The position numbers and the translations under genes were made by a program. Positions 6,205-60,684 of a stretch of 64,000 nucleotides of DNA are shown here, one piece after another (position 1 is the stretch's first letter; every line of letters begins with the position of its first letter). This DNA is from Flavobacteriales bacterium (GTDB taxonomy: Bacteria > Bacteroidota > Bacteroidia > CAIKAF01), in assembly GCA_052437175.1 (NCBI GenBank), contig JBQVOK010000008.1, forward strand, positions 95,506 through 159,505, written 5' to 3'. The notes beneath the pieces were generated by a model. It made no database searches and had not been told where the DNA came from. It saw only the letters and a program-made list of their open reading frames with translations.

Positions 6205-9200
6205 TTACTGCCGTACAAATTTCTGCTTCTGCAGGCCCTGGCGGCTGCGCATTTCGAGTACATACGTGCCTTTGCGCAGGGAAAGGATGTCTATACGAAG
6301 CTGGTTCAGGCCGGCGTTGGCCGCCACGGAACCCGTAAGCACTACCCGCCCCGAAATATCCAGCACACGCCAGTTCATGGCGTCGTCTTCACTTAAGATA
6401 TAATCGGCAAAGATCTGCTGCTCGGCCGGGTTCGGGTACACCATACCTACCCAGAAATCATCATTCAGGTTCCGGCAGCGTGTTTCCGGATCGATGAGTA
6501 TACTATCATTTATCGTATATAGATCTACACAACAGAAATGAAGGGCATTCGTGCCAACGGGGATCAATCCGCTGAATGAATAATTCAGCAAAGCACCCGG
6601 GCCCAGGGAACCATTCCACAATTCCCGGAAACCGGCGCCATAATCTGCGCGGGCACCCAGTTCCAGGTCTGTGATCAGCTGGTTGCCCGTATTCAGCAGG
6701 GTACCTGAAAAACTGATCTTGCCGTTGCTTTCTGCGCATTGTACGTTCATCCATTCGGCCGAAAGTTCGCGCTCGTTCACTACGATCTCTACCGAGGCCG
6801 AATCGGAACAGTTCTGGTTGTTCCCGGCGATCAGCACCAGCGTATACACACCGGTATCGGCATACACCACCGCCCCCGGTTCCTGCAGGTTGCTCTGTAC
6901 CCCGTTCCCGAAGTTCCAGAGATAGCTGCCGGCATTGGTCCCGGTAAATACCGGCGTTACACTCAGCGGCGGTGCGCCGAACGTGGTATTTACGGTAAAG
7001 CTGGCCGTTGGAGCCTGTTTTACATAAATGGTACCTTGCAGTGAATCTTTACAGCCCGCCTGTGTGGTCACGATCAGGCGCACGATACGGCTTCCGCTGC
7101 CCGTATACGCAAATACCGGCTGGGCCGCCTGCGAGGTACCGGCCGTACTGAAACGCCAGAGATAGGAACTGATATTGTCGTTAATACCCGTAGAATTGTT
7201 CAGGAAAGGGATCGGCGTACCGGCACAGATGCTGTCGGGCATGCTGAAATCGGCCAAAGCCGCCTTCGTTACCGGTACGATTTTTGTTTTGTATGCCCGG
7301 CACTGGTTATTGGTAGACACCCGCAGGGTTACCTGAAAGCTATCTTCCGCACCGAAAATAAACTGCGGACTGAACAGGTTGGATGTGCTGCCGTTCCCGA
7401 AGAACCAGGTATACGACTGGGGCGAAACGCCATTCCCGAAGGTAGTGGTATTCTGAAAGACCGTAGGTCCTTCATAGCATACCCCGCTGAAAGTAAAGTC
7501 CGGGTAAGCCCCTTCCTTGATCAGCACGGGGCGGGTGAGCGTACGTACACAACCCGAGTCATTCTGTACCGTAAAGCTTACAAAATACTGACCCGGCAAC
7601 ACATAGGTATGTTTGGGCGCAGATACCGACGAGCTGTTTGCTGCCCCGGAAGCCGGATCGTTGAAATTCCAGGCATAACTGCTTATTCCTCCCGCATTCG
7701 GCAGTGCATGGCCTGTAAAAACCGTACTGTCGTTATTGCAGGTATCGGCATAACTGAAGCTGAGCGCAGGCTGTGCATTTATCGTGATGTTCCGGCGCAG
7801 GGTATTGCCGCAACCGTTATCGGCCAGTATAAAAAGTTCTACCGGGTAAGTGCCCGCTGCAAGGTAAGTATTCTGGGGCTGTGCCAGCGACGAGGTATTC
7901 CCGTCCCCGAAATCCCAGTGGTAGGTAAGTACGTTCTGGTTGCTGCTGGCCGTAAAGGACGTGCCGGCATTCTCGCAGCGCTGTACCGCATCGAAACTGA
8001 TCACCGGCGCCGTACCGTTCAGCAGCACGTTCACCGTATCGTCTGCATAACAGCCGTTCTCATTGGTGGCATGTACCCAGTAAGTGCCTGGGTTACTGAG
8101 TATGATCGACGCGCTTTGCTCGCCCGTATTCCACAGGTAATTCGATCCCGGTCCGCCCGGAACGTTCAGCTGCAGACTGTTGTTGAGACAGAGCGTGGTA
8201 TCATTGCCCAGGCCGGCCAGGGGAAAAGGATCGTTAAGTACCTGCACCGTGTCCGAAGTAAAAACACAGCCCGTAGTGGTCTGGGTAACCGTTACATAAT
8301 AGAGACCCGGGCTGCTGATCGTCAGTGCGGTATCTGTGCTGTTGTCCGACCACACAAAGTTGTACGAGGCCCCGGGCAGGTTGGTCTGCCACACACGGCT
8401 TCCGCCCTGGCACAGGTAGTTTACGGGAGGCAGCTGGTTAAATGCCGACAGGCTGGCTACCCGCACCGTATCGGAATACGTATTGCCGAAACCGTCGCTC
8501 ACCTGTACCCAGTAAATACCGGGCGAGGTTACCGGCAGGGCGGCTGTGGAAGCGCCCGTACTCCAGAGGTACGATGCATAACCTGTACCCGCGTTCAGGG
8601 TTATAAGCCCGCAGAGCGGATTTACGCTGGTATCCCGGCCCAGGTTTACGGGCGGCAGGTAGCGCTGGGTAAGAAAATCTTCGGTCAGGTTGCGGAGCGA
8701 ATCGTTATGCTGCTGGTTAAAGAATATCATTTCTGCCACTTCCATCTGCGAAGTAGCCAGCACCGAAGAATTGGAATAACTGGCATTGCTGCCGAGTATA
8801 AGCGGTGCATTGGGATTGATGCTGTATGTCTGAGCCGTACCGGAGCCCACCAGGGTACCGTTGCGGTAGAGGCGGGCCGTTGTGGTATTGTCGAGCGCGG
8901 TGAACATACGGTAGGTATTGCCCGGGCTGGAAATAAAATACTCCGCGGCCACCCCGCCCCCATTGCTGGCCCACAGGAAATTAGCGCCCCCGTTGTAGTT
9001 ATAAGCCGCCCGGTTGTGCTGGTTCGGGGTAAAGGTCGTAAAATTGGCCATGGTAAATATAAAACCATAGGCCTGGGGCTGGGTATTGAGCTTGCCCAGG
9101 AAATACACCTCCATGGGGTCTGTATTGGCAATGGCGCTGCCTTTGATATTGGTGGTGAGCTGCCTTACACTCCCGTTAAAATGCACAAAAGGCTTGTTGC

Positions 9201-9684
9201 CCAATCCGCCCGATGAGCGGTAGGTAGGGCTGGTGGCTGCATTGGCATTGGAGGCAAGTGCCGTATATTCGAGCGAGTTCCAGTTCTGCAGGGCCGTATT
9301 ATTGGCCTGGGTTATGTTCAGCGCACTGAACCAGCCCCGGAGTCCGCCCGCCAGCGTAGGTGAAAAGTGCGTAAAGGTGTACACCGGCGAGTTATTACTC
9401 TGCCCGCTGCTGCGCACTCTCCAGAAATAGGTGGCAGGCTGGGGTATCGTGTATACCAGGCTGTCCTGGCTGAGCCCGGCAAACAGCTGGGAACCTGCAA
9501 ATGCGGCATTATCCGCCACTTCCAGGTCGAACGAATAAGGCAGCCCCGAGGTATTCCAGCGGAGTACAACGGAATTACCCGGCAGAATGCTGCCCCGTGC
9601 AGGAGAATAAGGGTCCGGCGTTTGTGCTCTGGTGATGGCCGCAAGGCCGAGGAGAAAGACACAAACTGGAATAAGTTTTTTCAT
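6205..9684 (-). CDS. Large secreted multi-domain protein (LamG-like N-region, PKD-like repeats) with a T9SS C-terminal sorting domain
   Basis: Signal peptide MKKLIPVCVFLLGLAAITRAQ; repeated W/HWDFGDG PKD-like modules; C-terminus YPNPAEQQ...VLDISGRVV...GTYVLEMRS is a typical T9SS CTD. Confidence 0.8.
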   Translation of the reverse strand: MKKLIPVCVFLLGLAAITRAQTPDPYSPARGSILPGNSVVLRWNTSGLPYSFDLEVADNAAFAGSQLFAGLSQDSLVYTIPQPATYFWRVRSSGQSNNSPVYTFTHFSPTLAGGLRGWFSALNITQANNTALQNWNSLEYTALASNANAATSPTYRSSGGLGNKPFVHFNGSVRQLTTNIKGSAIANTDPMEVYFLGKLNTQPQAYGFIFTMANFTTFTPNQHNRAAYNYNGGANFLWASNGGGVAAEYFISSPGNTYRMFTALDNTTTARLYRNGTLVGSGTAQTYSINPNAPLILGSNASYSNSSVLATSQMEVAEMIFFNQQHNDSLRNLTEDFLTQRYLPPVNLGRDTSVNPLCGLITLNAGTGYASYLWSTGASTAALPVTSPGIYWVQVSDGFGNTYSDTVRVASLSAFNQLPPVNYLCQGGSRVWQTNLPGASYNFVWSDNSTDTALTISSPGLYYVTVTQTTTGCVFTSDTVQVLNDPFPLAGLGNDTTLCLNNSLQLNVPGGPGSNYLWNTGEQSASIILSNPGTYWVHATNENGCYADDTVNVLLNGTAPVISFDAVQRCENAGTSFTASSNQNVLTYHWDFGDGNTSSLAQPQNTYLAAGTYPVELFILADNGCGNTLRRNITINAQPALSFSYADTCNNDSTVFTGHALPNAGGISSYAWNFNDPASGAANSSSVSAPKHTYVLPGQYFVSFTVQNDSGCVRTLTRPVLIKEGAYPDFTFSGVCYEGPTVFQNTTTFGNGVSPQSYTWFFGNGSTSNLFSPQFIFGAEDSFQVTLRVSTNNQCRAYKTKIVPVTKAALADFSMPDSICAGTPIPFLNNSTGINDNISSYLWRFSTAGTSQAAQPVFAYTGSGSRIVRLIVTTQAGCKDSLQGTIYVKQAPTASFTVNTTFGAPPLSVTPVFTGTNAGSYLWNFGNGVQSNLQEPGAVVYADTGVYTLVLIAGNNQNCSDSASVEIVVNERELSAEWMNVQCAESNGKISFSGTLLNTGNQLITDLELGARADYGAGFRELWNGSLGPGALLNYSFSGLIPVGTNALHFCCVDLYTINDSILIDPETRCRNLNDDFWVGMVYPNPAEQQIFADYILSEDDAMNWRVLDISGRVVLTGSVAANAGLNQLRIDILSLRKGTYVLEMRSRQGLQKQKFVRQ

Positions 9685-49414: not shown

Positions 49415-49422
49415 TACTTTTG
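49415..49422 (+). promoter_or_regulatory. Bacteroidetes-type -7 element TACTTTTG upstream of the T9SS cargo gene
   Basis: TACTTTTGCGG 28 nt upstream of the ATG at 49450. Confidence 0.3.
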
Positions 49423-49449
49423 CGGCCAGTTACAATCAAGCATACACTA

Positions 49450-51732
49450 ATGAAGAAAGTTCTCCTCAGCCTGGGGCTCGTTACCTCAGCCCTGTTCAGT
49501 TACGGACAGGTCACCATTACCAAGTACCTTCCTTCAGTGGCGCCGGGCAGCAGTCAACAGCGTGCCCCCAACGGGACCCCATCACATACGGCGTTCCGTT
49601 CACATTTTATTATTCCGGCCTCTGAGATCAGCGGCATTCTGAACGGCAGCCAGTTCTCTGAGATCGCCTTTGTGCTGCTGGGCGGGGCTTCTGTACCTTT
49701 TTCAGGGAATATGAGCATTTACCTGGAAAACACCACGGATGCACAAAACCTGAAATCGAGCGACTGGGCCACGGCCATCGGCCCGATGACGCAGGTATAC
49801 AACGGCAGCTACAGTGTTCCCGCAGGGAACGTAGCTTCGGAGATCGGGCTTACGCTTACACAGACCTTTACCTACACGGGCGGCGGACTGTACGTAGGTA
49901 TCGACTACCTGGGCAGTGTTTTCTCCGGGGCGCTCGATCCGGCTACCTACCGCTGCAACAGCGTTTTATCGGGGGCTCTGTATATGGCGGCTTCTGCCAC
50001 TACCACCCCACCTGCCACGCTGAACCAGGTTTCGGCTTTCCGTCCGCAGTTACGTTTTACCTACCCGAACCCCAACAGCCACGATGCTTCGGTTGAGAAT
50101 ATCGATGTGAACAAGGCACACCTGGCTAAGATCGGCGAACCCCTCACTTCGGTAAAAGCCTATATACGCAATTCAGGCAGTGATACCCTCAGCAACCTGC
50201 CCCTCACCCTGAACGTAAGCGGCGCCAATACGCTGAGCCAGGTACAGACCCTTGCCAGCCTGGCCCCCGGCCTTACCGACACGGTGATCTTCAGCGGGCT
50301 GTCATTCCTGAACGACGGTACGCAGACGCTGACCGTAAACGCCCCGAACGACGACGTTGCCCAGAACAACAGCTTCTCCGTGTTACAGTATGTATCTTGT
50401 GATACGCTTGCCTACAGTCATAACGGAAGCGCCAACGACGACATCGGGTTCAATACCGGAGCCGGGATCCTGGCCGTACGTCTTACCAGCGGGCCCGATC
50501 TTTTCCCGGTAGTAAAAGGCGTAAACGTACGTATATCCACGGCCTCTTCCACCCAGAACAAAGTGGTGGCCGGCGTACTGCTCGATAAACAGGGGGCCAT
50601 CATAGCCCTTTCTGCCCCGGATACCATGCAAAGCGGCGACCTGGGCAAAACGGTGTTCTTCCCCTTCAGCAGCCTTCCTGCCATTGCCCCGAACGACACC
50701 TTTTATGTCGGGCTCAGGCAATATCCTTCGGCGCAGGGTTATTTCCCGGTGGGAACCCAATACCCGGCCCTGGTGCCCGCAGACCGTGTGTTTTCCTTCG
50801 GGTTCAACGGCGATTCCATCAGCACGTACAATAACCTGGGCACCCTGATCATTGAAGCAGTCCTGGGCAGTTCTGTGCAACTGAGCGATAATACCGCCAA
50901 CGGTTCGGTATGTGAAGGTCAGCCCGTGAGCTGGACCGCAACACCCGGATTTAACAGCTACGATTTTATAGTGAACGGCAACAGCGCGCAACAATCCGCT
51001 GCAAATACCTATACCGCTACTCCCGCTGCCAGCAGCAGTATACAGGTAAATGCCGTGTACCAGAACTGTCCCGTACAGTCGGCCACCGATTCCCTTTATG
51101 TAGTACCGGTGCCGCACACCCAGCTGGCCGCTACCATCTGCGAGGGAGAAACCTATATCCTGGGCAGCCAGGTGCTGAACAGTCCGGGTACCTACAGCGA
51201 AACCTTTCCAGTGGCAGGCGCACTCTGCGACAGCGTGGTAAGCGTAACCCTTACGGTAAATATGGTAAACGAAGGCCTTAGCCAGAACGGCACAGAACTG
51301 AGTGCCAATGCCCAGAATGCAGCCTATGTATGGATCGACTGCAGCAGTGGGTTAGCGGTGCCCGGCGAAACGGCCCGCACGTTCAACCCGACACAGAACG
51401 GAAGCTACGCCGTAATTGTTACCGAAAACGGTTGCAGTGACACCTCAGCCTGTGCGCAGGTAACCCTTACTCCTGCCGGGCTTAACGAAAACGAGGCTTT
51501 ACAGGCCCTTGCGCTGTATCCGAACCCTGCCAGGGAAAGCTTTAACCTGCAGTTAACGGGCATACAGATCCGCGAAGTACGCATTTCGGATATAAATGGG
51601 CGCGTTCTGTATACGAAAATTACGGGTTCTGAAATGATCAGTGTTCCCGTTGAACAACTGCACCCGGGTATATACCTGGTACAGGTACATACAGATGCCG
51701 GAACGGCAGTACGCCGCTTTATAAAGCACTAA
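49450..51732 (+). CDS. Secreted protein with a T9SS C-terminal sorting domain (Ig-like/beta-rich modules)
   Basis: Signal peptide MKKVLLSLGLVTSALFSYGQ; C-terminus LALYPNPARESFNLQL...DINGRVLY...GIYLVQVHTD is a typical T9SS CTD. Confidence 0.75.
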   Translation: MKKVLLSLGLVTSALFSYGQVTITKYLPSVAPGSSQQRAPNGTPSHTAFRSHFIIPASEISGILNGSQFSEIAFVLLGGASVPFSGNMSIYLENTTDAQNLKSSDWATAIGPMTQVYNGSYSVPAGNVASEIGLTLTQTFTYTGGGLYVGIDYLGSVFSGALDPATYRCNSVLSGALYMAASATTTPPATLNQVSAFRPQLRFTYPNPNSHDASVENIDVNKAHLAKIGEPLTSVKAYIRNSGSDTLSNLPLTLNVSGANTLSQVQTLASLAPGLTDTVIFSGLSFLNDGTQTLTVNAPNDDVAQNNSFSVLQYVSCDTLAYSHNGSANDDIGFNTGAGILAVRLTSGPDLFPVVKGVNVRISTASSTQNKVVAGVLLDKQGAIIALSAPDTMQSGDLGKTVFFPFSSLPAIAPNDTFYVGLRQYPSAQGYFPVGTQYPALVPADRVFSFGFNGDSISTYNNLGTLIIEAVLGSSVQLSDNTANGSVCEGQPVSWTATPGFNSYDFIVNGNSAQQSAANTYTATPAASSSIQVNAVYQNCPVQSATDSLYVVPVPHTQLAATICEGETYILGSQVLNSPGTYSETFPVAGALCDSVVSVTLTVNMVNEGLSQNGTELSANAQNAAYVWIDCSSGLAVPGETARTFNPTQNGSYAVIVTENGCSDTSACAQVTLTPAGLNENEALQALALYPNPARESFNLQLTGIQIREVRISDINGRVLYTKITGSEMISVPVEQLHPGIYLVQVHTDAGTAVRRFIKH

Positions 51733-51780: not shown

Positions 51781-52163
51781 TACCCGCTTCGTACCGGGGA
51801 GAAGGCGTTTACCGGGACGGAAGGTATATACCTAAAAAAAGAAGCCGGGGAAAAGCCGGCCTCCTGGGTAAAACAAAAACAAGGAAAAAGCCCGGCAGTA
51901 AGGGACCGGGCTCTTTTCGGGTACGGATAGTTAAGAAGGGGAATCTGAATACTGTAACCGTAGTATATATCTATTGTTTGTTTGCAATTTTCGTGGTGAA
52001 CTCTGCGTCAGGCCTGCCTTCCGAAGAACCACAGGACAAATATACCCCGCCTTTTCATACCCGAAAGCGCCAATGTATATCCGCCGGGGTTCGTTTCCTA
52101 AGTGCGAAAATCCGTTTTACATCCGTTTTTATACCCTGTGCAAGATGTTCTGCAAATGAAAGC

Positions 52164-52229: not shown

Positions 52230-55200
52230 TTAGTTTCGTATAATGCGTATCACCGATGTATAACCGGCGGCTTCTACGCGCAGCAGGTAAACCCCCGGCA
52301 ATAAGGCCGTCATATCCAGTTTCATGGCAGTGGCATCCGGCATAAATACCGTTTGCTGCATTTTACCACTCATGTCAAAAATATGCACATAGGCCGTACC
52401 CTGTATCGAAGAGCTGATGTTCAGCATGCCGTCGGTCGGGTTCGGGTATGCCTGCAGGTTCAGAGCCGCAGCCGATTCGTCGAGGCCTACGGTATTGATA
52501 GTGATACAGGCCGAAGTATCTGTACAGCCGTCCTGTGTAACAATTACGGCATAAGATCCGTTCTGGCCGGCCTGGAACACCTGGTTCACCGCTGCATCAA
52601 TGTTGGAGCCGGTAGCACAGTTGATCCACTGGTACTGGGCAGGTGCTGCCTGCGCGGTAAGTATAACCCCGTTCGCACTCTGGCTTACATTGGTATTTAC
52701 CTGTTTGATGGTCAGCTGCAGGGTAAGCGTACTGTCGCAACCGGCGGCGTTGGTCAGCAGTTGTGTGTAGGTACCGCTGCTGGTGTAGGTCTGGCCGTTC
52801 AGTGTGTAACTTCCGCAGGCCGTAGCGCTCAGTGTGGATGTAGTCGGCTGGTTGATAGTCAGGTTCAGCGTAAGCGTACTGTCACAACCCGCCGCATTGG
52901 TCAGCAGTTGCGTGTAGGTACCGCTGGTCGTGTAGGTCTGGCCGTTCAGTGTATAGCTTTCGCAGGCGCTGGCATTCAGTGTGGAGCTGCTGTTTTGCTT
53001 GATAACCAGGTTCAGCGTGATGATACTGTCGCAACCCGCCGCATTCGTAAGCAATTGCGTGTAGGTACCGCTGGTCGTGTAGGTCTGCCCGTTCAGCGTA
53101 TAGCTTTCGCAGGCAGAGGCAGTCAGTGTGGAGCTGCTGTTTTGCTTGATAACCAGGTTGAGCGTGAGGGTGCTGTCGCAACCCGCCGCATTCGTCAGCA
53201 ATTGCGTGTAGGTACCGCTGGTCGTATAGGTCTGCCCGTTCAGCGTATAGCTTTCGCAGGCAGAGGCACTCAGTGTGGAGCTACTGTTTTGTTTGATAAC
53301 CAGGTTCAGCGTGAGGGTACTGTCGCAACCCGCCGCATTCGTCAGCAATTGCGTATAGGTACCGCTGGTCGTGTAGGTCTGCCCGTTCAGCGTATAGCTT
53401 TCGCAGGCAGAGGCACTCAGGGTGGAGCTACTGTTTTGTTTGATAACCAGGTTCAGCGTGATAGTACTGTCGCAACCCGCAGCGTTGGTCAGCAGTTGTG
53501 TGTAGGTACCGCTGGCCGTGTAGGTCTGGCCGTTCAGCGTATAGCTTTCGCAGGCGCTGGCACTCAGGGTAGATGTAGTGCTGTTTTTAATGGTCAGATT
53601 CAGCGTGAGGGTACTGTCGCAGCCTGCTGCATTGGTCAGCAGCTGGGTATAGGTACCACTGGCCGTGTAGGTCTGTCCATTTAACGTATACGCATCACAA
53701 CTTGAAATATTTAAGGTAGATATGGTGCTGTTTTTAATGGTCAGGTTCAGCGTGAGGGTGCTGTCGCAGCCTGCTGCATTGGTCAGCAGCTGGGTATAGG
53801 TACCGCTGGTCGTGTAGGTCTGGCCATTTAACGTATACGCATCACAACTTGAAATATTTAAGGTAGATGTAGTACTGTGTTTAATGGTCAGGTTTAATGT
53901 AATGGTACTGTCGCAACCCGCTGCATTCGTACGCAGCTGCGTATAGGTGCCGCTGGTCGTATAGGTCTGGCCATTCAGCGTATAGCCATCGCAGGCACTG
54001 ATGTTCAGTGTGGAGGCCGTGCTGTGCTTAATGGTCAGGTTCAGCGTAAGGGTGCTGTCGCAGCCCGCAGCATTCGTCAGCAGTTGCGTATAGGTACCAC
54101 TGCTGGTATAGGTCTGGCCGTTTAAAGTATAGGCATCACAACGTGTAATATTCAGCACGGATGAAGTGCTCTGCTTAATGGTCAGGTTCAGCGTAAGGGT
54201 GCTGTCGCAGCCCGCAGCATTGGTCAGCAGCTGGGTATAGGTGCCGCTACTGGTATAGGTCTGGCCATTCAGCGTATATGCATCGCAACTTGAAATAGTC
54301 AATGTCGATGTGGTGCTGGGCTTAATGGTCAGGTTCAGCGTGATGGTGCTGTCGCAGCCTGCTGCATTCGTCAGCATTTGCGTATAGGTGCCGCTGCTGG
54401 TATAGGTCTGGCCATTCAGCGTATAGCCATCGCAGCTGCTGATATTCAACACAGACGTAGTACTGTTCTTAATGGTCAGGTTCAGCGTGATGGTGCTGTC
54501 GCAGCCGGCCGCATTGGTCAGCAGCTGGGTATAGGTACCACTGGTCGTATAGGTCTGACCATTCAGCGTATACGCATCACAACTTGAAATGGTCAATGTC
54601 GATGTAGTACTGTGTTTAATGGTCAGATTGAGCGTAAGGGTACTGTCGCAACCGGCCGCATTGGTCAGCAGCTGGGTATAGGTACCACTGGTCGTATAAG
54701 TCTGGCCATTCAGCGTATACGCATCACAGCTTGAAATAGTCAATGTCGATGTAGTACTGTGCTTAATGGTCAGATTGAGCGTAAGGGTACTGTCGCAACC
54801 CGCTGCATTGGTAAACAGTTGTGTATAGGTGCCGCTGCTGGTATAGGTCTGACCGTTTAACGTATACACATCACAGGCCGTTGCCGAAAGTACGGAAGAC
54901 GTACTGTTCTTAATGGTTAGGTTCAGCGTAAGGGTGCTGTCGCAGCCGGCAGCATTGGTCAGCAGCTGGGTATAGGTGCCGCTTGTGGTATAGGTCTGAC
55001 CGTTTAACGTATACGTATCGCAGGCCGTTGCCGAAAGTACGGAAGACGTGCTGTTCTTAATGGTCAGGTTCAGCGTAAGGGTGCTGTCGCAACCCGCCGC
55101 ATTGGTCAGCAGCTGGGTATAGGTCCCGCTGGCCGTATAGGTCTGGCCATTCAGCGTATAGGAATCACAAGATGAAATACTGAGGGTAGATGTGGTACCC

Positions 55201-57335
55201 TGCTTAATGGTGAGGTTCAGGGTAATGATGGAATCACAACCGGCGGCATTTACCAGGGTATCTTTAGCGGTGTTGTTGGAAGCGGTATAGGTAACGCCGT
55301 TGATCCAGGTAAAAGATTCGCAGGCCGAACGCACATCTGTGGTATAGCTGGGCTGCAGCACGGTCAGGTTCAGGGTGATCACCGAATCGCAGCCGGCCGC
55401 GTTAACCAGGGTATCTTTAGCCGTATTGGTAGAGCTGGTGTAGGTTACACCGTTGATCCAGGTATAGGGTCCGCAGCTGGTGTGCGTAACGGTGGATGCC
55501 GTACTTTGCTTTTTAATGATGGTCACATCGTCGTAGGAACCGCTGCAGCTGCCGTTACTTACCGTCCAGCGCAGTACATTGGTACCGTTGGCCAGGCCGC
55601 TTACCAGTGCCGTGGGCGAATTAACATTGCTGAAGGAACCGCTGCCCGATACCACCGTCCAGGTACCTGTACCGGCAGAAGCCGCATTCGCAGCAAGCAG
55701 GGCCGTGGTACCACATACCGACTGATCGGGACCGGCCACGGCAGCCTGGGGCTCGTCATAAATAGTGAGCGTGGTTACGATAATACTATCGCAACCTGCG
55801 TATTGTGAGGGGAAAGTGTCTGTAAACACGCCGGAAGCATACTGCATGGCACCGGCCACAAAAAAGCTGTCGCAGGCACTTATGTTTATGTTGTACACCT
55901 GATCGCTGCAGGCAAAGCAGGCATTGTTATTGGTCAGGCCCAGGCTCTGCACGCCTATGATGTTGGGGCCGTATGAGTTCTGGCGTGCAGCCACATTCAC
56001 GTGTGCAAGTCCGTATGTATTGTAAGTGTGCGTAACTACCTGTGAAGTAAGCGCAATATCCGATACTCCGGTGCAGGTGGTCATGGCCTGCATATCCGTC
56101 TGTACCAGGTAACCACCCAGCGACGAACTGGAACCCGCTAAAACATAATTGCTGCCATTGCGGCATACATCTTCAAAGATCTCGGTCTGAAACACATTCC
56201 CGAACGATTTACTGATAAGTGTTGCCCCGCTCGTATCCAGCTGTGCAAACCAGGCATTGCGTTCTGATCCGTTGATATGCTGACCCGCCAGCAAGAGGGT
56301 ATTCGTCTGTGTATCGAAACGCATTCTTTTTACCAGTTCGTTGTTGGGCGTAGTAAGTTTCTTCGACCATATAATTACACCGTTTTCCTGGAATTTATAC
56401 AGCCCGATATCGTACCCGTTGTTATAGTTGGTAACCATGTACAGTTCTTTATTGGGTGCTTTTACCAGGCTTACCGGCACCTCTGACAGATCCATATTCC
56501 GCTGCCGTATAGTACCTACCGTAGCGCCGGCCGGACTTACCTGCGCAATATTGAGCCTGCGCGTGGAGTTGGTTTCCATGCCTATTACGATCAGGTTTCC
56601 ATTGGTATGTAACTTGATGCCCGCTACGTGGCTGGAATTCAGGTTAGCCTGGGAATGGTTCACATCATACCCGTATATACGGGTCCAAACAGGCTCCAGC
56701 GTAGCACTGAGCTTACCATACGTGGCAGTGGTCCATTCATAATAACTTACCCCGCCGCTGAACAGGTCGCGGAAGTTACCGGCATAATAGATAGACCCGT
56801 CGGAAGCTACTTCTATATCCACAATATGCAGAGATCTGTAGGTGTACTGGTTCGTAGGATTGGCCTGTACCTCCAGTTTTTTACGATAAAGAATGTTCCC
56901 GTTCGGGTCGGTGATCCAGGTAAAACCGCTTATTACATATTGTTCACCCACAATACCGCTCACAAAAAAGTTCCCGTTGGGCAGTTCGCGGATAAAGTTG
57001 ATGCGTAAGTCCGTATTATCCTGGAAAGAACGCTGGTAGTACTTTACCCAAACGGTATCGCCCTGGGGCGTTAGCTGGGCCAGGCCACAGATCCCGCGCG
57101 GGATATCACCCAGCTGAAACTGAGCAAGCTGTTTATTGATACCGATAAGGAGGTTACCGTTACTAAGCGGTGCACAGGCCTCTACACGGGAAGGATACTG
57201 AGTTTGTCCGCTTATCACGGGCATCAGGATGTCGAGATTTTTTTCGTAACGCGGCCCTGGGTTCTGACCAAGTACCGTGAGGGGGAGTACGAAGAGCAGG
57301 CAGAGAAGAAGGAAGGGGGAAATCTTTCGTTTCAT
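52230..57335 (-). CDS. Giant T9SS-secreted cell-surface repeat protein/adhesin (1701 aa): N-terminal beta-propeller-like region, about 20 tandem 49-aa Cys-bracketed repeats, C-terminal T9SS sorting domain
   Basis: Signal peptide MKRKISPFLLLCLLFVLPLTVLGQ; repeats of the form CDxYTLNGQTYTxSGTYTQLLTNAAGCDSTLTLNLTIK; C-terminus YPNPTDGMLNISS...GVYLLRVEAAGYTSV is a T9SS CTD. Confidence 0.85.
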   Translation of the reverse strand: MKRKISPFLLLCLLFVLPLTVLGQNPGPRYEKNLDILMPVISGQTQYPSRVEACAPLSNGNLLIGINKQLAQFQLGDIPRGICGLAQLTPQGDTVWVKYYQRSFQDNTDLRINFIRELPNGNFFVSGIVGEQYVISGFTWITDPNGNILYRKKLEVQANPTNQYTYRSLHIVDIEVASDGSIYYAGNFRDLFSGGVSYYEWTTATYGKLSATLEPVWTRIYGYDVNHSQANLNSSHVAGIKLHTNGNLIVIGMETNSTRRLNIAQVSPAGATVGTIRQRNMDLSEVPVSLVKAPNKELYMVTNYNNGYDIGLYKFQENGVIIWSKKLTTPNNELVKRMRFDTQTNTLLLAGQHINGSERNAWFAQLDTSGATLISKSFGNVFQTEIFEDVCRNGSNYVLAGSSSSLGGYLVQTDMQAMTTCTGVSDIALTSQVVTHTYNTYGLAHVNVAARQNSYGPNIIGVQSLGLTNNNACFACSDQVYNINISACDSFFVAGAMQYASGVFTDTFPSQYAGCDSIIVTTLTIYDEPQAAVAGPDQSVCGTTALLAANAASAGTGTWTVVSGSGSFSNVNSPTALVSGLANGTNVLRWTVSNGSCSGSYDDVTIIKKQSTASTVTHTSCGPYTWINGVTYTSSTNTAKDTLVNAAGCDSVITLNLTVLQPSYTTDVRSACESFTWINGVTYTASNNTAKDTLVNAAGCDSIITLNLTIKQGTTSTLSISSCDSYTLNGQTYTASGTYTQLLTNAAGCDSTLTLNLTIKNSTSSVLSATACDTYTLNGQTYTTSGTYTQLLTNAAGCDSTLTLNLTIKNSTSSVLSATACDVYTLNGQTYTSSGTYTQLFTNAAGCDSTLTLNLTIKHSTTSTLTISSCDAYTLNGQTYTTSGTYTQLLTNAAGCDSTLTLNLTIKHSTTSTLTISSCDAYTLNGQTYTTSGTYTQLLTNAAGCDSTITLNLTIKNSTTSVLNISSCDGYTLNGQTYTSSGTYTQMLTNAAGCDSTITLNLTIKPSTTSTLTISSCDAYTLNGQTYTSSGTYTQLLTNAAGCDSTLTLNLTIKQSTSSVLNITRCDAYTLNGQTYTSSGTYTQLLTNAAGCDSTLTLNLTIKHSTASTLNISACDGYTLNGQTYTTSGTYTQLRTNAAGCDSTITLNLTIKHSTTSTLNISSCDAYTLNGQTYTTSGTYTQLLTNAAGCDSTLTLNLTIKNSTISTLNISSCDAYTLNGQTYTASGTYTQLLTNAAGCDSTLTLNLTIKNSTTSTLSASACESYTLNGQTYTASGTYTQLLTNAAGCDSTITLNLVIKQNSSSTLSASACESYTLNGQTYTTSGTYTQLLTNAAGCDSTLTLNLVIKQNSSSTLSASACESYTLNGQTYTTSGTYTQLLTNAAGCDSTLTLNLVIKQNSSSTLTASACESYTLNGQTYTTSGTYTQLLTNAAGCDSIITLNLVIKQNSSSTLNASACESYTLNGQTYTTSGTYTQLLTNAAGCDSTLTLNLTINQPTTSTLSATACGSYTLNGQTYTSSGTYTQLLTNAAGCDSTLTLQLTIKQVNTNVSQSANGVILTAQAAPAQYQWINCATGSNIDAAVNQVFQAGQNGSYAVIVTQDGCTDTSACITINTVGLDESAAALNLQAYPNPTDGMLNISSSIQGTAYVHIFDMSGKMQQTVFMPDATAMKLDMTALLPGVYLLRVEAAGYTSVIRIIRN
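52700..55500 (-). repeat. About 19-20 head-to-tail copies of a 147-nt, in-frame 49-codon repeat; many copies are near-identical at the DNA level
   Basis: The unit ...GTTCAGCGTGAGGGTACTGTCGCAACCCGCCGCATTCGTCAGCAATTGCGTGTAGGTACCGCTGGTCGTGTAGGTCTGCCCGTTCAGCGTATAGCTTTCGCAGGC... recurs with few substitutions; 17 LNGQTYT and 2-3 WINGVTYT protein repeats were counted. Confidence 0.85.
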
Positions 57336-57608
57336 TCGGATTTTATTGCTTATGTGTGATATATAGAGTATTGTTTGAATACGAGGGGTTTTTAAGCCGG
57401 CAAAAATAGCTTTAAGTTTTCATCCGGCCGTTACCCGGTTTTCCGCCAGGTGCGGTCAGCAGTACCTCTTAAATCATATTGCCTTGATTATAAATAAATT
57501 AAATGCATTTATAAATACTATACGGAACATAGATTCTGAGGGAACGGGGTTCATATCATCCGGTTTTATCGTCCAGGGAATGCAGGGAAAAGTCAGGCAG
57601 CGCAGCCG

Positions 57609-57652
57609 ATAAAAAACCCACAGGAAAGCCCTTATACTTCTTTCCTGCGGGT
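57609..57652 (-). terminator. Rho-independent terminator (minus strand) downstream of the LytTR regulator gene
   Basis: CCCACAGGAAAG...CTTTCCTGCGGG 12-bp stem (one G.U pair) followed by a U-tract on the minus strand (complement of AAAAAA at 57611-57616). Confidence 0.5.
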
Positions 57653-57806
57653 GCTTTTCATAGTTTCTCGTTATCGATCAACAGACACAACTTTATTCTC
57701 TGCATACAGGCAGGACATATACAGGACAAAAGTACACACAAAGGAAGGGTACGTCAACATGTAATGGATAAGCGCTGCGTTCGGATGTATATGCGCTGAA
57801 ATATGC

Positions 57807-58586: not shown

Positions 58587-60533
58587 TTAAAATTTTTTCT
58601 TTAATGGTATGCGGAAAGAGACCAGGGTTCCCGAACCGGCAGCCGAACGGATGGTAAAATGGATCTTACGGCGCTTGCCGCGGTTCAGCAGTTCCAGGCG
58701 TTCCCGGGTGATCTGCAGGGCCAGTGATTTTTTGCCGGACGTCTGTTCTTTAGCCCCCTCCTGGTCAAAGCCTACCCCGTTATCCTGTACATCTACCTGC
58801 AAAAAGCCGTCCTGCTCCCGGAAGCTCACCGAAAGTTCACCCCGGCCGTCCATTCCGCGGAAACCATGTTCCAGGGCATTTTCAATAAAAGGCTGGGTAA
58901 GCATGGGCGGTATCCAGGTGTTTTCCAGGTCCAGCTCCTCATCTACATGCAGGGTATAGTCGAAACCGTTGTCGAAACGCAGCTCCTGCAGGCTGATGTA
59001 GTTCTGCAGCCACTGCACCTCGCGCGAGAGTGAAATGTATTCCTCGCGGGAATTTTCCAGGATGGAACGTACGATCCGGGCAAAGGAAGACAGGAAGCGC
59101 CCCGCTTCGGCCGGATTGTTCTTCATCATAAAGCTCTGGATGGCCGTGAGTGCATTAAAAATAAAGTGGGGGTTCATCTGGCTGCGCAGCAGACGCTGTT
59201 CCAGGCGCATGGTATGTTGCTCCGACCGGATGCGGTTGTTCCGGATCAGCAGAGCCGATATAACAATGATGAGCAGGGCCAGGCCTCCGATACCATACAG
59301 GAAGTAAAGGCGCTGCCGCAACTGAAGCTCCTGGATCTCGGCGTTCTTTTTGAGGGTTTCGTTCTCCTGTTCTTTTTTACCGGTCTCGTATTTTTCTTTC
59401 AGCTCGGATATTTTCCCGGCCATATCGCTCGAAAAGATACCGCTCTGGTATTCATTGGCAAGCTCGTACGAGGCCAGTGCCTGCCGGTAATTGCCCATGG
59501 CCTTGTAGGTGTTGTAATACTCCATGTGGAAATTGGCCAGATCGGAGGCAGCGGCAATCCTGCGGTCTTTAATAAGTCCGAAACCTTCGTTCAGTGCATC
59601 CAGGGCCTCGCTGTATTTCCCCGTCATACGGTGCACGGAGCACTGGTACATGAGCGAATACGCCATCTTTAAGCTGTCGCCAAGCTGCTGGTAATTCTCG
59701 TAGCTGTCCTTAAAGGTTTTCAGGGCCTTGTCGTACTCGCCCCGGGCCACGTATATGTTTCCCATATTGATCTGGCAGCCGGCAATGATCATCAGGTCTT
59801 TCAGGTCTTTCTGTATCTGCAGGCAAAGATTAAAATAGGTAAGCGCTTTGTCGTAGCGTTTCAGGTCGTTGTTGAGCACGCCCAGGTTCAGCAGGGCATG
59901 CGACATTCCGCGGCGGTCGCCGATCTCTTCGCGTATTTCCAGGGAGCGCAGGTAGTAGTTCTCACCTTCTTCATACCGTTCCAGGTTCAGAAAAAGCAGG
60001 GCCATGGTGCCCAGGGTAAGGGCCTGTCCCCTTTTTTCGCCGATCTTTTCGTACAGATCATAGGTCTTCTGGTAATTCACCAGGGCTTTTTCGTACTCAC
60101 CCCGGCTGCGGTAATAAGTGCCGTAATGTGAGTTTACCCCTGCCAGACCGAACGCATAGTCCATTTTCGTATATATACTATCGGCCTTTTTCACATAAAA
60201 GATGCTTTCCTCCGGATGGCCTGTTACGAAAAGGTAATCGGCATAGCTAAGACTTGCCGAAGCTTCGCCGCGCGGGTAACGTATATCTGCGGCGGTCTTC
60301 TGCATCATTTCTATGTAAGGCAGGGTACTCTTGCGGGAAGGGTCCTTATAACTGTATACATAGATAATATTTTCGAGCAGTTTTATCTTGTTGCTATCGT
60401 TCGGGTGAACGGGCAGTACCCGCAGCATACTGTCGAGGTCCTGGGCAAGGGCGCGACCTGTGCCGGCCAACAGACAGAGACACAGGAAAAACGGGAAAAA
60501 CAGCCGTGAAGATCGTCTGAGAGTGGGGTTCAT
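58587..60533 (-). CDS. Sensor histidine kinase, LytS/YehU type, with an extracytoplasmic TPR-repeat sensor domain
   Basis: Signal peptide; multiple TPR-like repeats (YYRSRGEYEKAL.../ALLNLGVLNN...); TM; LRSQMNPHFIFNALTAIQ His_kinase motif plus HATPase; start at the internal ATG at 60533. Confidence 0.85.
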   Translation of the reverse strand: MNPTLRRSSRLFFPFFLCLCLLAGTGRALAQDLDSMLRVLPVHPNDSNKIKLLENIIYVYSYKDPSRKSTLPYIEMMQKTAADIRYPRGEASASLSYADYLFVTGHPEESIFYVKKADSIYTKMDYAFGLAGVNSHYGTYYRSRGEYEKALVNYQKTYDLYEKIGEKRGQALTLGTMALLFLNLERYEEGENYYLRSLEIREEIGDRRGMSHALLNLGVLNNDLKRYDKALTYFNLCLQIQKDLKDLMIIAGCQINMGNIYVARGEYDKALKTFKDSYENYQQLGDSLKMAYSLMYQCSVHRMTGKYSEALDALNEGFGLIKDRRIAAASDLANFHMEYYNTYKAMGNYRQALASYELANEYQSGIFSSDMAGKISELKEKYETGKKEQENETLKKNAEIQELQLRQRLYFLYGIGGLALLIIVISALLIRNNRIRSEQHTMRLEQRLLRSQMNPHFIFNALTAIQSFMMKNNPAEAGRFLSSFARIVRSILENSREEYISLSREVQWLQNYISLQELRFDNGFDYTLHVDEELDLENTWIPPMLTQPFIENALEHGFRGMDGRGELSVSFREQDGFLQVDVQDNGVGFDQEGAKEQTSGKKSLALQITRERLELLNRGKRRKIHFTIRSAAGSGTLVSFRIPLKKKF

Positions 60534-60684
60534 TTGCCAAAGGTACGCTTCTTTAGCAGAATGCCGTTCTGCTTTTGTTTTAGTATAGTTAAGAAATACT
60601 ATACACAACTAAAAAAGTCCCGCCTTCACGGGACCTTCGTTCATTTCCTGTAATTCAAGAATTTCTGCATCAGATTTTTACATC

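Follow-up and report, generated by a model that had tools for sequence, protein, structure and literature searches.

[quoted passage not shown] SprB and RemA, gliding adhesins of Flavobacterium johnsoniae, are thought to make up filaments whose binding sites lie at a distance from the cell. The arrays of the group B streptococcal Rib/alpha C stalks are typically near-identical at the DNA level. GhpA of Aureispira sp. CCB-QB is 5,898 aa long, contains 52 repeats and assembles, as a heptamer with a hollow stem, into a grappling hook (PDB 9flp, 9flw; bioRxiv 10.1101/2024.01.29.577165). T9SS cargo of Tannerella forsythia is O-glycosylated at the motif D(S/T)(A/I/L/V/M/T), and its S-layer proteins, TfsA and TfsB, have many such sites, which receive their glycans while still in the periplasm (PMC8550257, PMC8729774). 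Abundant T9SS cargo proteins of P. gingivalis avoid O-glycosylation (PMC8729774).

Here we describe a repeat protein gene in a 64-kb stretch of DNA ("the window"). What this gene adds to the known kind is a very abundant domain that the Pfam and NCBIfam models searched do not recognize and that lacks a solved structure. Our preferred reading, which we put at a probability of roughly 0.6, is that the protein forms a stalk, variable in length and probably glycosylated, with a β-propeller head held out from the cell surface.

Architecture of the repeat protein

The long ORF that heads Table 1 is genuine and encodes a secreted, predicted surface protein of the Bacteroidota. Its assignment to the sense strand is based on a signal peptide, a sorting domain, homologues and a dN/dS of ~0.11. 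The 443-aa antisense ORF exists, as a previous reading of the sequence alone (the sequence-only reading) had said, and is an artefact, as it had also said: because its translation itself repeats every 49 aa, this ORF mirrors the repeat and is not a gene.

Table 1. Features of the repeat gene and its upstream region (window positions)
Feature	Position	Strand	Details and basis
Complete T9SS-secreted repeat protein gene	52230..57335	-	1701 codons + stop; ORF, homologues, domain matches
Sec signal peptide, residues 1-23	57267..57335	-	from the translation; predicted cleavage between VLG and QNPG
N-terminal head, residues 24-475	55911..57266	-	AlphaFold2 + Foldseek
Isolated divergent module, residues 482-530	55746..55892	-	Cys488 + Cys515; HMM built from units
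PKD-like domain, residues ~534-607	55515..55736	-	AGPDQ...C...W motif; weak Pfam match
Two WINGVTYT-variant modules, residues 616-715	55191..55490	-	module alignment
Core array, residues 716-1548	52692..55190	-	17 head-to-tail modules, 147 nt / 49 aa each
Small 2-Cys beta domain between array and sorting domain	52461..52691	-	YQWINC...GSYAVIVTQDGCTDTSAC; translation
Type A T9SS C-terminal sorting domain, residues 1630-1701	52233..52448	-	PF18962 + TIGR04183
Antisense 443-aa ORF (repeat by-product, not a gene)	52353..53684	+	49-aa periodic translation
TATTTTTG box (putative promoter)	57401..57408	-	66 nt 5' of ATG; invariant in four orthologous intergenic regions
Perfect 9-bp direct repeat, TATTTATAA-N12-TATTTATAA	57488..57517	-	candidate LytTR-regulator site
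Intrinsic terminator-like hairpin	57611..57652	-	13-bp stem + U6; ends the two-component operon
LytTR-family response regulator, 249 aa	57807..58556	-	Response_reg E 5e-22, LytTR E 2e-19
Sensor histidine kinase	58587..60533	-	TPR repeats, His_kinase (PF06580), HATPase_c; domain matches

By reading and alignment, the predicted signal peptide has typical n-, h- and c-regions, and an A followed by QNPGP is kept at the cleavage site in orthologues. Cleavage at the predicted position would leave Gln at the N-terminus, in line with the Bacteroidetes "Q-rule" (PMC5837995). At the other end of the protein, the sorting domain scores above both curated cut-offs (PF18962, Por_Secre_tail: E 2.2e-10, 41.1 bits, cut-off 27; TIGR04183: E 1.2e-9, 38 bits, cut-off 23), which bears out the proposal that this protein, made of 49-aa, two-Cys modules, is T9SS cargo. 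Furthermore, the window holds two more sorting-domain genes (49420-51732 and 6205-9684), suggesting an active T9SS.

The 17 core modules, the two WINGVTYT variants and the isolated divergent copy make 20 modules, in agreement with the earlier estimate of about 20; the repeat consensus and the WINGVTYT variant quoted with that estimate are both correct. The two variants pair one-to-one with units 2-3 of a related locus, L001 (91% and 83% nt identity). Assignment of the PKD-like domain is weak, with a score against K319L-like_PKD (PF22352; E 9e-4, 19.6 bits) that falls under the cut-off of 27. The small Cys domain next to the sorting domain has no Pfam match, and the adjacent gene carries this cassette as well, at 38% identity over 205 aa (E 7e-36).

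The head is modelled as an all-β propeller of ~7 blades over residues ~24-412 (AlphaFold2 pLDDT 69.5, pTM 0.74, ~28 strands), followed by a low-confidence stretch at residues ~414-475. A deeper alignment of the head gained only three further homologues, and confidence in the model is therefore modest. Foldseek returned 399 PDB matches at E<=0.001, the best being the CylK propeller (E 5.7e-15, TMq 0.61). No Pfam match to the head was found and no catalytic family was recognized; there is a weak sequence link to a protein annotated PQQ_2/DUF5122/SBBP. Since the structural matches include both enzymes (CylK, sialidases, lactonases, paraoxonase/Drp35) and binders (BtuG), the name "adhesin" is unproven, and we regard the head as a putative generic β-propeller that may or may not be adhesive.

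Could the protein instead be a released, soluble enzyme or scavenger, with the repeats serving as a protease-resistant, glycosylated linker? The enzymes among the best matches of the head would fit, and proteins that are released, secreted enzymes among them, can carry a type A sorting domain too. Indeed, one homologue, P0006, joins the module array to an M4 peptidase. However, a rod of 1000 residues has no obvious use in such a protein, the head itself belongs to no recognized catalytic family, and array length varies among orthologues whose head is conserved, which fits reach from a surface. We consider a soluble enzyme very unlikely and favour a surface stalk.

The module and its family

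A three-module profile matches at least 35,870 representative proteins (clusters at 50% identity), which carry from 1 up to 77 copies, and arrays fill up to 88% of some proteins. Arrays of the module follow heads that are unrelated to one another (M4 peptidase, LRR, FG-GAP, FN3, YDG), and the sorting domains after them can be of type A or of type B. Together with the range of 1 to 20 modules behind the single head family described here, this argues for a role as a stalk.

No Pfam repeat family matched the whole protein at E<=1, nor queries of one and three modules at E<=10; at the gathering threshold, the module matches neither the HYR and Big families nor those of SprB, PKD and cadherin repeats. 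Among 47 diverse three-module segments, no Pfam family matched more than 4, and module-rich homologues had no valid Pfam match over their modules. The Pfam copy searched has its newest models from 2025. The module likewise has no match in NCBIfam release 20.0 and no sequence match in the PDB; Pfam and NCBIfam scans of the protein, the modules and the homologues returned the sorting domain and scattered chance matches only. Hence the module is not an SprB, PKD or cadherin repeat that these models recognize, as the sequence-only reading had proposed; the best PKD match to modules is PKD_4, at E 0.03-0.05 in two of the 47 sequences. We also considered PF26918, which is listed on two Flavobacterium YDG proteins that have a short variant of the module. 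Because this family, known here from precomputed annotations only (its model is missing from the Pfam copy searched), is absent from three proteins with mostly canonical modules (P0001, P0003 and P0005), it seems not to cover our module. In the literature we found no named T9SS two-Cys repeat or stalk; the module may have been described under another name. The suggestion of an undescribed adhesin repeat family thus needs rewording: the family is uncurated, but it is abundant, and adhesion is only a presumed function. Thousands of giant Bacteroidota proteins are thus annotated by their sorting signal alone, and an HMM built from the array would annotate them.

AlphaFold2 predicts that three consecutive modules are all-β, with five strands per unit (pLDDT 95.6, pTM 0.68). 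The longest β strand starts with the D-S-hydrophobic triplet, which may be conserved for structure only. In a Foldseek search of the PDB, the only match to the three-module model at E<=0.001 was the neck of GhpA (9flp_A, E 2.9e-5), and this match is weak; next came GhpA fragment 6, and the Rib tandem structures 6s5y and 8yke were among the weak matches. These matches raise the alternative that the protein bundles side by side into a multi-stranded, GhpA-like filament, with the module surfaces as lateral contacts. GhpA is itself a T9SS substrate whose stem of Ig-like repeats has disulfides and probable O-glycans, and strong surface conservation would fit lateral packing. We nonetheless regard bundling as highly improbable and prefer the stalk reading.

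Every core module contains a C-D-S-[T/I] triplet and a pair of Cys spaced by 26 residues. The Cys pair is invariant or nearly so in an alignment of 47 sequences. Of 4333 modules, 4081 retain the two Cys, which lie 26-29 residues apart. Isolated single modules likewise retain both, which argues for an intramodule pair; the two Cys probably form a disulfide within each module.

The protein has 23 D[ST][AILVMT] sites, compared with 8.4 +/- 2.5 in shuffled sequences, and 20 of these are module C-D-S-[T/I/V] triplets. Across the family, D-S-[AILVMT] directly follows the second Cys in 85% of 4263 modules. Judged by its sequence, this Sec-exported protein has the motif of the Bacteroidota general O-glycosylation system, and the Ser of the C-D-S-[T/I/V] triplet is probably glycosylated. 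One O-glycosylation motif per module provides a testable idea of why the protein was conserved while the DNA drifted.

Divergence and copy number of the array

Tandem Repeats Finder reports a period of 147 nt and 17.1 copies at 52708-55225 (score 2150). Earlier, the copies had been described as near-identical, with very high DNA identity. We found otherwise: pairwise, the 17 core units average 77% nt identity (range 67-95%) and 83% aa identity, the longest exact repeat within the array is 60 nt, and a likeness of 94-95% is reached by no units other than 13/14 and 16-18, counted over all 20 modules. Third codon positions of the core units are 57% identical, with a mean dS of ~1.17 and a dN/dS of ~0.11. 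Hence the protein sequence of the module is under purifying selection, while the DNA has drifted. A three-unit (441-nt) super-repeat, hinted at by Tandem Repeats Finder, was rejected, as units i and i+3 are no more alike than neighbours are. A dN/dS of 0.11 on nearly every residue is more than a passive spacer needs.

Selection on almost all positions, with synonymous sites saturated, would also suit an alternative in which the modules are the working parts, forming a multivalent binding surface for a polysaccharide or a partner cell, with the propeller as an accessory. Each module exposes conserved Tyr, Thr, Asn and Gln (YTLNGQTYTxSGTYTQLLTN), a composition common in carbohydrate-binding surfaces, and the share of some proteins taken up by the array is in line with this alternative. 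However, the module showed no likeness to any carbohydrate-binding family, and its presence behind many unrelated catalytic and binding heads, in widely varying copy number, is the usual behaviour of a stalk domain. We regard a multivalent surface as quite unlikely, and a stalk as the better account of the modules.

Orthologues of the head carry 1, 2, 3, 12, 18, 19 or 20 modules; copy number thus differs among relatives, and the sequence-only reading had expected variation. Two conspecific assemblies, L001 (12 modules) and L008 (18 modules), align at 98.5-98.9% identity across 13.4 and 8.4 kb and still differ by exactly 882 nt (6 units). Two L001 units, 5 and 7, are perfectly chimeric, joining L008 units 5/8 and 10-11/13 at crossovers that lie inside identical stretches of 30 and 93 nt. 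The locus therefore provides a clean natural series of array lengths, with recombination junctions at single-nucleotide resolution. Simple collapse of a near-identical six-unit duplication was rejected as an explanation for this pair, because L008 is ~80% self-identical at an 882-nt shift and because the difference consists of two separate three-unit deletions with chimeric units. The arrays also show concerted evolution: identity is 87% within the array of L009 but 69% between the arrays of L009 and the window, the heads of which are 84% identical. The array had been called recombination-prone and length-variable. This is so among relatives; since the DNA copies have diverged, high-frequency, phase-like variation from cell to cell is not indicated.

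The 12-versus-18 difference could be an assembly shortcut instead of real recombination. Four conspecific short-read contigs (99.1-99.9% nt identity) extend into the array, and every one of them stops inside it, at window positions 55103, 55103, 55062 and 54604, and the contig of P0002, from a relative with an 85% identical head, also ends in the array. The exact repeat protein is absent from a collection of 15 billion proteins, where the neighbouring regulator of the same organism is present on 11 contigs. The prediction that short-read assemblies fail at the array is therefore right as to the place and wrong as to the manner, since in practice they break there and do not collapse. Such array genes are thus systematically lost from short-read metagenome assemblies.

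These contig ends and the missing protein could also be taken to mean that the copy number of 20 and the differences among relatives are themselves assembly artefacts, the true length being different and possibly fixed; the junctions in L001 do lie in identical stretches, where an assembly graph could jump. Several observations argue against this. The reading frame is intact across all units, and no exact repeat exceeds the length given above. At 99.9% identity, L017 bears out the first ~four core units. In independent assemblies, three related species have 18, 19 and 20 modules on contigs of 0.3-1.1 Mb. Collapse cannot explain the distant homologues, which have 1-3 modules. We consider it unlikely that the copy numbers are artefacts, and treat the variation in stalk length as real.

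Upstream region, proposed role and known systems

An adjacent LytTR system with a TPR sensor had been put forward as a possible regulator of the array gene. Both of its genes are real. A protein identical to the response regulator appears in a Flavobacteriales bacterium MAG under the name of a LytR/AlgR family regulator; the mechanical ORF of the sensor kinase begins at TTG 60608, and orthologues of 647-648 aa fit a Met start at 60533. The Bacteroidota -7 promoter consensus is TAnnTTTG, which the TATTTTTG box fits, making it a putative promoter. Sites for LytTR regulators are typically paired 9-bp direct repeats ~12 bp apart, and the TATTTATAA pair is the only exact 9+12+9 repeat in the window. 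It is only loosely conserved, in sequence as in position: L003 and L009 have pairs with one mismatch in the same 21-nt phase, and L008 has none. The hairpin that ends the two-component operon (-23.9 kcal/mol, z -4.1, with 0 of 200 shuffles folding as well) is kept in L003 and L008. Four close relatives retain the order of the two-component and repeat genes, whereas more distant head homologues have no two-component system beside them. The regulatory link is no more than suggestive, with gene order and the 9-N12-9 repeat in its favour, and the terminator between the operons and the distant relatives against it.

How might the protein work? We propose that it is exported first by Sec and then by the T9SS. 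The type A sorting domain would direct passage through the outer membrane and then, as in T9SS cargo that has been studied, be removed, leaving the protein attached to the surface. With the C-terminus anchored, the N-terminal propeller would be the distal, functional head, and the 20 small all-β modules would form the presumably rigid stalk between head and anchor, each stapled by an intramodule disulfide and bearing one O-glycan on the C-D-S-[T/I/V] Ser. The stalk would set how far the head projects; as a guess from strand lengths, each module may contribute ~3-4 nm, or 60-80 nm in total. In-register unequal recombination between units would change its length.

A broader version of this proposal is tentative, and we think it rather doubtful as a whole: the module may be a "glyco-stalk" unit, one of the largest uncurated Bacteroidota extracellular families, disulfide-stapled, with one sequon, C-D-S-[I/V/T/L], forming a rod tuned in length by recombination and, in this lineage, switched by a dedicated LytTR system. 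If true, T9SS surface proteins would be held off the cell by a regularly glycosylated rod.

PKD domains (PF00801, PF18911, PF22352) are, like the module, small β-sandwich modules common in T9SS cargo, but the 49-aa module is about half their length and falls below every PKD threshold. SprB and RemA are likewise large, repetitive T9SS surface proteins. In contrast to SprB, the protein described here has no match to the SprB repeat (PF13573) and carries a type A rather than a type B sorting domain; moreover, no PorP/SprF-like gene adjoins its gene, and it has no known link to motility. Stalk repeats of Gram-positive surface proteins, such as those of Rib/alpha C and Ig-like arrays, share tandem small β domains that serve as a stalk of variable length, and a copy number changed by recombination. 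They differ in fold, secretion route and anchoring, and Rib domains have no Cys pair; the units described here, at 77% identity with saturated synonymous sites, also lack the DNA homogeneity typical of Rib arrays. TfsA and TfsB are unrelated in module and architecture, and are similar in bearing many glycosylation-motif sites on T9SS cargo, with one predicted site per module in our protein.

GhpA has no detectable sequence relationship to the protein, and the structural similarity is weak (TMq 0.40). Its reported disulfides link neighbouring domains, whereas the Cys pair described here is probably within the module, and its hook region is unrelated to the β-propeller. Nonetheless, both are Bacteroidota T9SS substrates with a distal N-terminal head (by prediction in our case) and a long stem of small β repeats, which in GhpA are Ig-like, and the GhpA stem, with disulfides and probable O-glycans on every repeat, is the closest solved structure to our module model.

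Architecture of the repeat protein

The repeat-protein gene is real and well formed. A 147-nt period runs through positions 52708-55225 (17.1 copies, 83% matches, score 2150 in Tandem Repeats Finder), and 20 modules emerge when the units are anchored on the AGCDS motif; the consensus proposed in the sequence-only reading agrees with them. That reading also took an antisense ORF to be a by-product of the repeat; its translation is itself periodic, and hence the ORF mirrors the repeat. The domains follow the order head, isolated module and PKD-like domain, 19 tandem modules, small Cys-containing domain, and sorting domain. The T9SS signal claimed earlier holds, with both sorting-domain models above their curated cut-offs. 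At the N-terminus, orthologues keep the signal-peptide cleavage region, and the predicted Gln after cleavage fits the Bacteroidetes Q-rule as outlined in PMC5837995.

Features of the repeat-protein locus and other T9SS cargo genes in the window
Feature	Position	Strand	Remarks
Third T9SS cargo gene, 1159 aa	6205-9684	-	several PKD domains, type A sorting domain
Convergent neighbouring gene, 770 aa	49420-51732	+	tail cassette common to repeat protein
Two strong terminator-like hairpins with T runs	51839-51916	-	between convergent T9SS genes, 314-390 nt downstream of repeat-protein stop codon
Repeat-protein ORF	52230..57335	-	5.1 kb; encodes 1701 aa
Signal peptide	residues 1-23		Sec-like; predicted cleavage before Gln, between VLG and QNPG
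Head	residues 24-475		all-beta model
Isolated divergent module	residues 482-530		Cys at 488/515
PKD-like domain	after head and isolated module		K319L-like_PKD E 9e-4, below cut-off; weak assignment
Two WINGVTYT-variant modules	residues 616-715
17 core units	residues 716-1548		each exactly 49 aa
Type A T9SS sorting domain	C-terminal		PF18962 41.1 bits (cut-off 27); TIGR04183 38 bits (cut-off 23)
Antisense ORF, 443 aa	52353..53684	+	periodic translation
TATTTTTG box	57408-57401		between regulator and repeat gene; invariant in alignment; candidate promoter element
Perfect TATTTATAA-N12-TATTTATAA direct repeat	57517-57488	gene strand	upstream of repeat gene, downstream of regulator gene
Hairpin and U6 tail	57652-57611		regulator/repeat-gene intergenic; -23.9 kcal/mol, z -4.1; conserved
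CAGCGCATAT / CAGCGCTTAT pair	57768-57798		21-nt-phased, one mismatch; just past regulator stop codon
Sensor kinase, mechanical ORF	58587-60608	-	TTG start, 673 aa

The head has no Pfam match. Its AlphaFold2 model, built from a shallow alignment, is all-beta with ~28 strands (pLDDT 69.5, pTM 0.74) and matched 399 PDB chains in Foldseek at E<=0.001, the top-ranked of which are all beta-propellers. The CylK propeller ranks first (E 5.7e-15, TMq 0.61); below it stand lactonases, sialidases and BtuG, a surface lipoprotein that binds B12. As modelled, the head fold is a propeller. The label "adhesin" is one that we infer.

The convergent neighbouring gene and the repeat protein share a tail cassette made up of a single two-Cys module, a small YxWxxC...GSYAVIVT..GC domain and the type A sorting domain (38% identity over 205 aa, E 7e-36). 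This similarity suggests that the cassette is shuffled between T9SS cargo genes, and the genome evidently encodes many T9SS substrates. The N-terminal part of the neighbouring gene has only a weak CARDB match.

An abundant module family

The module family is very abundant, is unrecognised by the family libraries searched and lacks a solved structure. The earlier suspicion that no known repeat family covers it was borne out. No Pfam or NCBIfam family matched over the repeat in scans of the whole protein and of one- and three-module queries; no Pfam family matches more than 4 of 47 diverse three-module segments; and mostly-module homologues have no valid Pfam match across their modules. Likewise, no PDB sequence matches the module, even by profile at E<=10. 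Database names of module-rich proteins mention the sorting domain only, or read "hypothetical". Nonetheless, a search of 1.84 billion cluster representatives with a three-module profile found 35,870 proteins at E<=0.001, of which 13,657 also pass E<=1e-30; the best 150 of the 35,870 have 4 to 77 modules each (median 28). In the first homologue search, the arrays were preceded by M4 peptidase, LRR, FG-GAP, FN3 or YDG heads and followed by type A (PF18962) or type B (PF13585) sorting domains. Where a source is named, it is Bacteroidia, Bacteroidales, Saprospiraceae, Sphingobacteriales or Flavobacterium.

In an AlphaFold2 model of three modules (47-sequence alignment; pLDDT 95.6, pTM 0.68), each module has five strands, the first Cys ending strand 1 and the second directly preceding the long strand 5. 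Both Cys are present in 4081 of 4333 modules, 26-29 residues apart, and the pair is invariant or nearly so in the alignment. Since isolated single modules keep both (488/515 in the repeat protein, the convergent neighbouring gene, and the one-module head relative L007), the pair is most simply read as an intramodule disulfide.

What is the significance of the residues that follow the second Cys? D-S-[A/I/L/V/M/T] stands directly after it in 85% of 4263 modules. Of 23 such motifs in the repeat protein, 20 are module triplets; shuffled sequences contain 8.4 +/- 2.5. This triplet is the general O-glycosylation motif of Bacteroidota, and T9SS cargo of Tannerella forsythia is heavily O-glycosylated, with DSI and DST sites localised directly (PMC8550257, PMC8729774). 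We therefore propose that each module carries one O-glycan. Against this, P. gingivalis avoids glycosylating abundant T9SS cargo (PMC8729774), and the conserved triplet may be purely structural and unrelated to glycosylation. Two Flavobacterium YDG-domain proteins (P0025 and P0028) have a shortened module variant of ~46 aa, with ...C-H-T-E... replacing G-C-D-S and without the triplet; they are annotated with PF26918, an accession newer than the Pfam copy searched.

Divergence and copy number of the repeats

The copies had been described as near-identical in DNA. However, nucleotide identity among the 17 core units averages only 77% (range 67-95%), and the longest stretch repeated exactly is 60 nt. 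Identity is 57% at third codon positions, whereas it is 83% in amino acids; mean dS is ~1.17 and dN/dS ~0.11. These values indicate that the duplicates are mostly old and that the protein is under purifying selection. A recent origin is suggested only for units 13/14 and 16-18 of the 20 modules, which are 94-95% identical. Selection on almost every residue exceeds the needs of a passive spacer, which leaves room for the modules themselves to act in binding, or to pack laterally as in GhpA, the grappling-hook T9SS protein of Aureispira.

The length variability that had been predicted is found among relatives of the head, which carry 1 to 20 modules. The window has 20 as assembled, followed by L009 with 19 (head 89% identical to that of the window in amino acids), L008 with 18 (74%), L001 (P0001) with 12 (75%) and L003/L004 (P0002) with at least 11 (85%), the contig stopping inside the array. 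L005, L006 (P0041) and L007 have three, two and one (36%, 36% and 34%). L009 units are 87% identical among themselves and 69% to window units, with heads 84% identical in DNA, a pattern of arrays evolving in concert.

L001 and L008 are conspecific and come from separate metagenomes (98.5-98.9% nucleotide identity over 13.4 and 8.4 kb). The DNA next to their arrays is 100% identical, and their lengths differ by exactly 882 nt, or six units. L001 corresponds to L008 with units 5-8 merged into one and units 10-13 into another; both merged units are perfect chimeras, and the switch falls in sequence that is identical over 30 nt in one and 93 nt in the other. This difference bears the signature of in-register unequal homologous recombination, although an assembly-graph shortcut is a possible source of it. 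Units 10 and 11 of L008 (within L008 9853-14761) are adjacent 147-nt units, 100% identical, where L001 has a single chimeric unit; the pair reflects a very recent duplication or else a region that the assembly has not resolved.

Short-read assemblies had been expected to collapse the array. It does defeat them, but they break there instead: all four conspecific contigs reaching the array stop inside it (window 55103, 55103, 55062 and 54604). Identity of the conspecific contigs to the window is 99.1-99.9%, and contig L017, at 99.9%, confirms roughly the first four core units. The exact repeat protein is absent from a collection of ~15 billion proteins, in which the exact response regulator of the adjoining gene is present on 11 contigs; one source names the latter as from a Flavobacteriales bacterium MAG.

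Surroundings, possible regulation and proposed mechanism

The genes run in the order dUTPase, TPR/His_kinase sensor, LytTR regulator, repeat protein and convergent T9SS gene. L001, L003, L008 and L009 keep this order; since they are close relatives and generally syntenic, its conservation tells us little about function. No such two-component system adjoins the distant head homologues L002 and L005-L007. Because a conserved terminator-like hairpin lies between them, the regulator and repeat-protein genes are separate transcription units. The TATTTTTG box fits TAnnTTTG, the consensus of the Bacteroidota -7 promoter element. LytTR sites usually consist of two 9-bp repeats spaced 12-13 bp apart, and the TATTTATAA pair is the only 9+12+9 exact repeat within the 64-kb window. 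L003 and L009 have related, loosely conserved pairs in the same 21-nt phase; L008 has none. The suggested regulation of the repeat-protein gene by the adjoining LytTR system is plausible but remains an inference.

The window, L003 and L008 share the second pair, CAGCGCATAT / CAGCGCTTAT, which stands upstream of the terminator hairpin. In other assemblies the sensor kinase has been called at full length four times, three of them at 647-648 aa; its real start is probably a Met at ~60533, as the sequence-only reading implied. An extra 1121-aa T9SS cargo gene with a weak NosD match and a sorting domain lies between dUTPase and sensor kinase in L001 (3324-6689) and at the corresponding place in L008; it is absent at that position in the window and L003.

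We propose that the repeat protein is first exported by Sec and would fold in the periplasm, with disulfide formation and putative O-glycosylation of each module. The type A sorting domain would then guide T9SS transport across the outer membrane and, by analogy with studied cargo, the processed C-terminus would attach the protein to the surface. The propeller would sit at the tip of a 20-module rod, 60-80 nm long as a rough guess from 11-residue strands. Unequal recombination between units would change how far it reaches, both in the course of evolution and from strain to strain. The repeat protein belongs to a known kind, the repetitive T9SS surface proteins, and is built from an abundant domain that the family libraries searched do not recognise.
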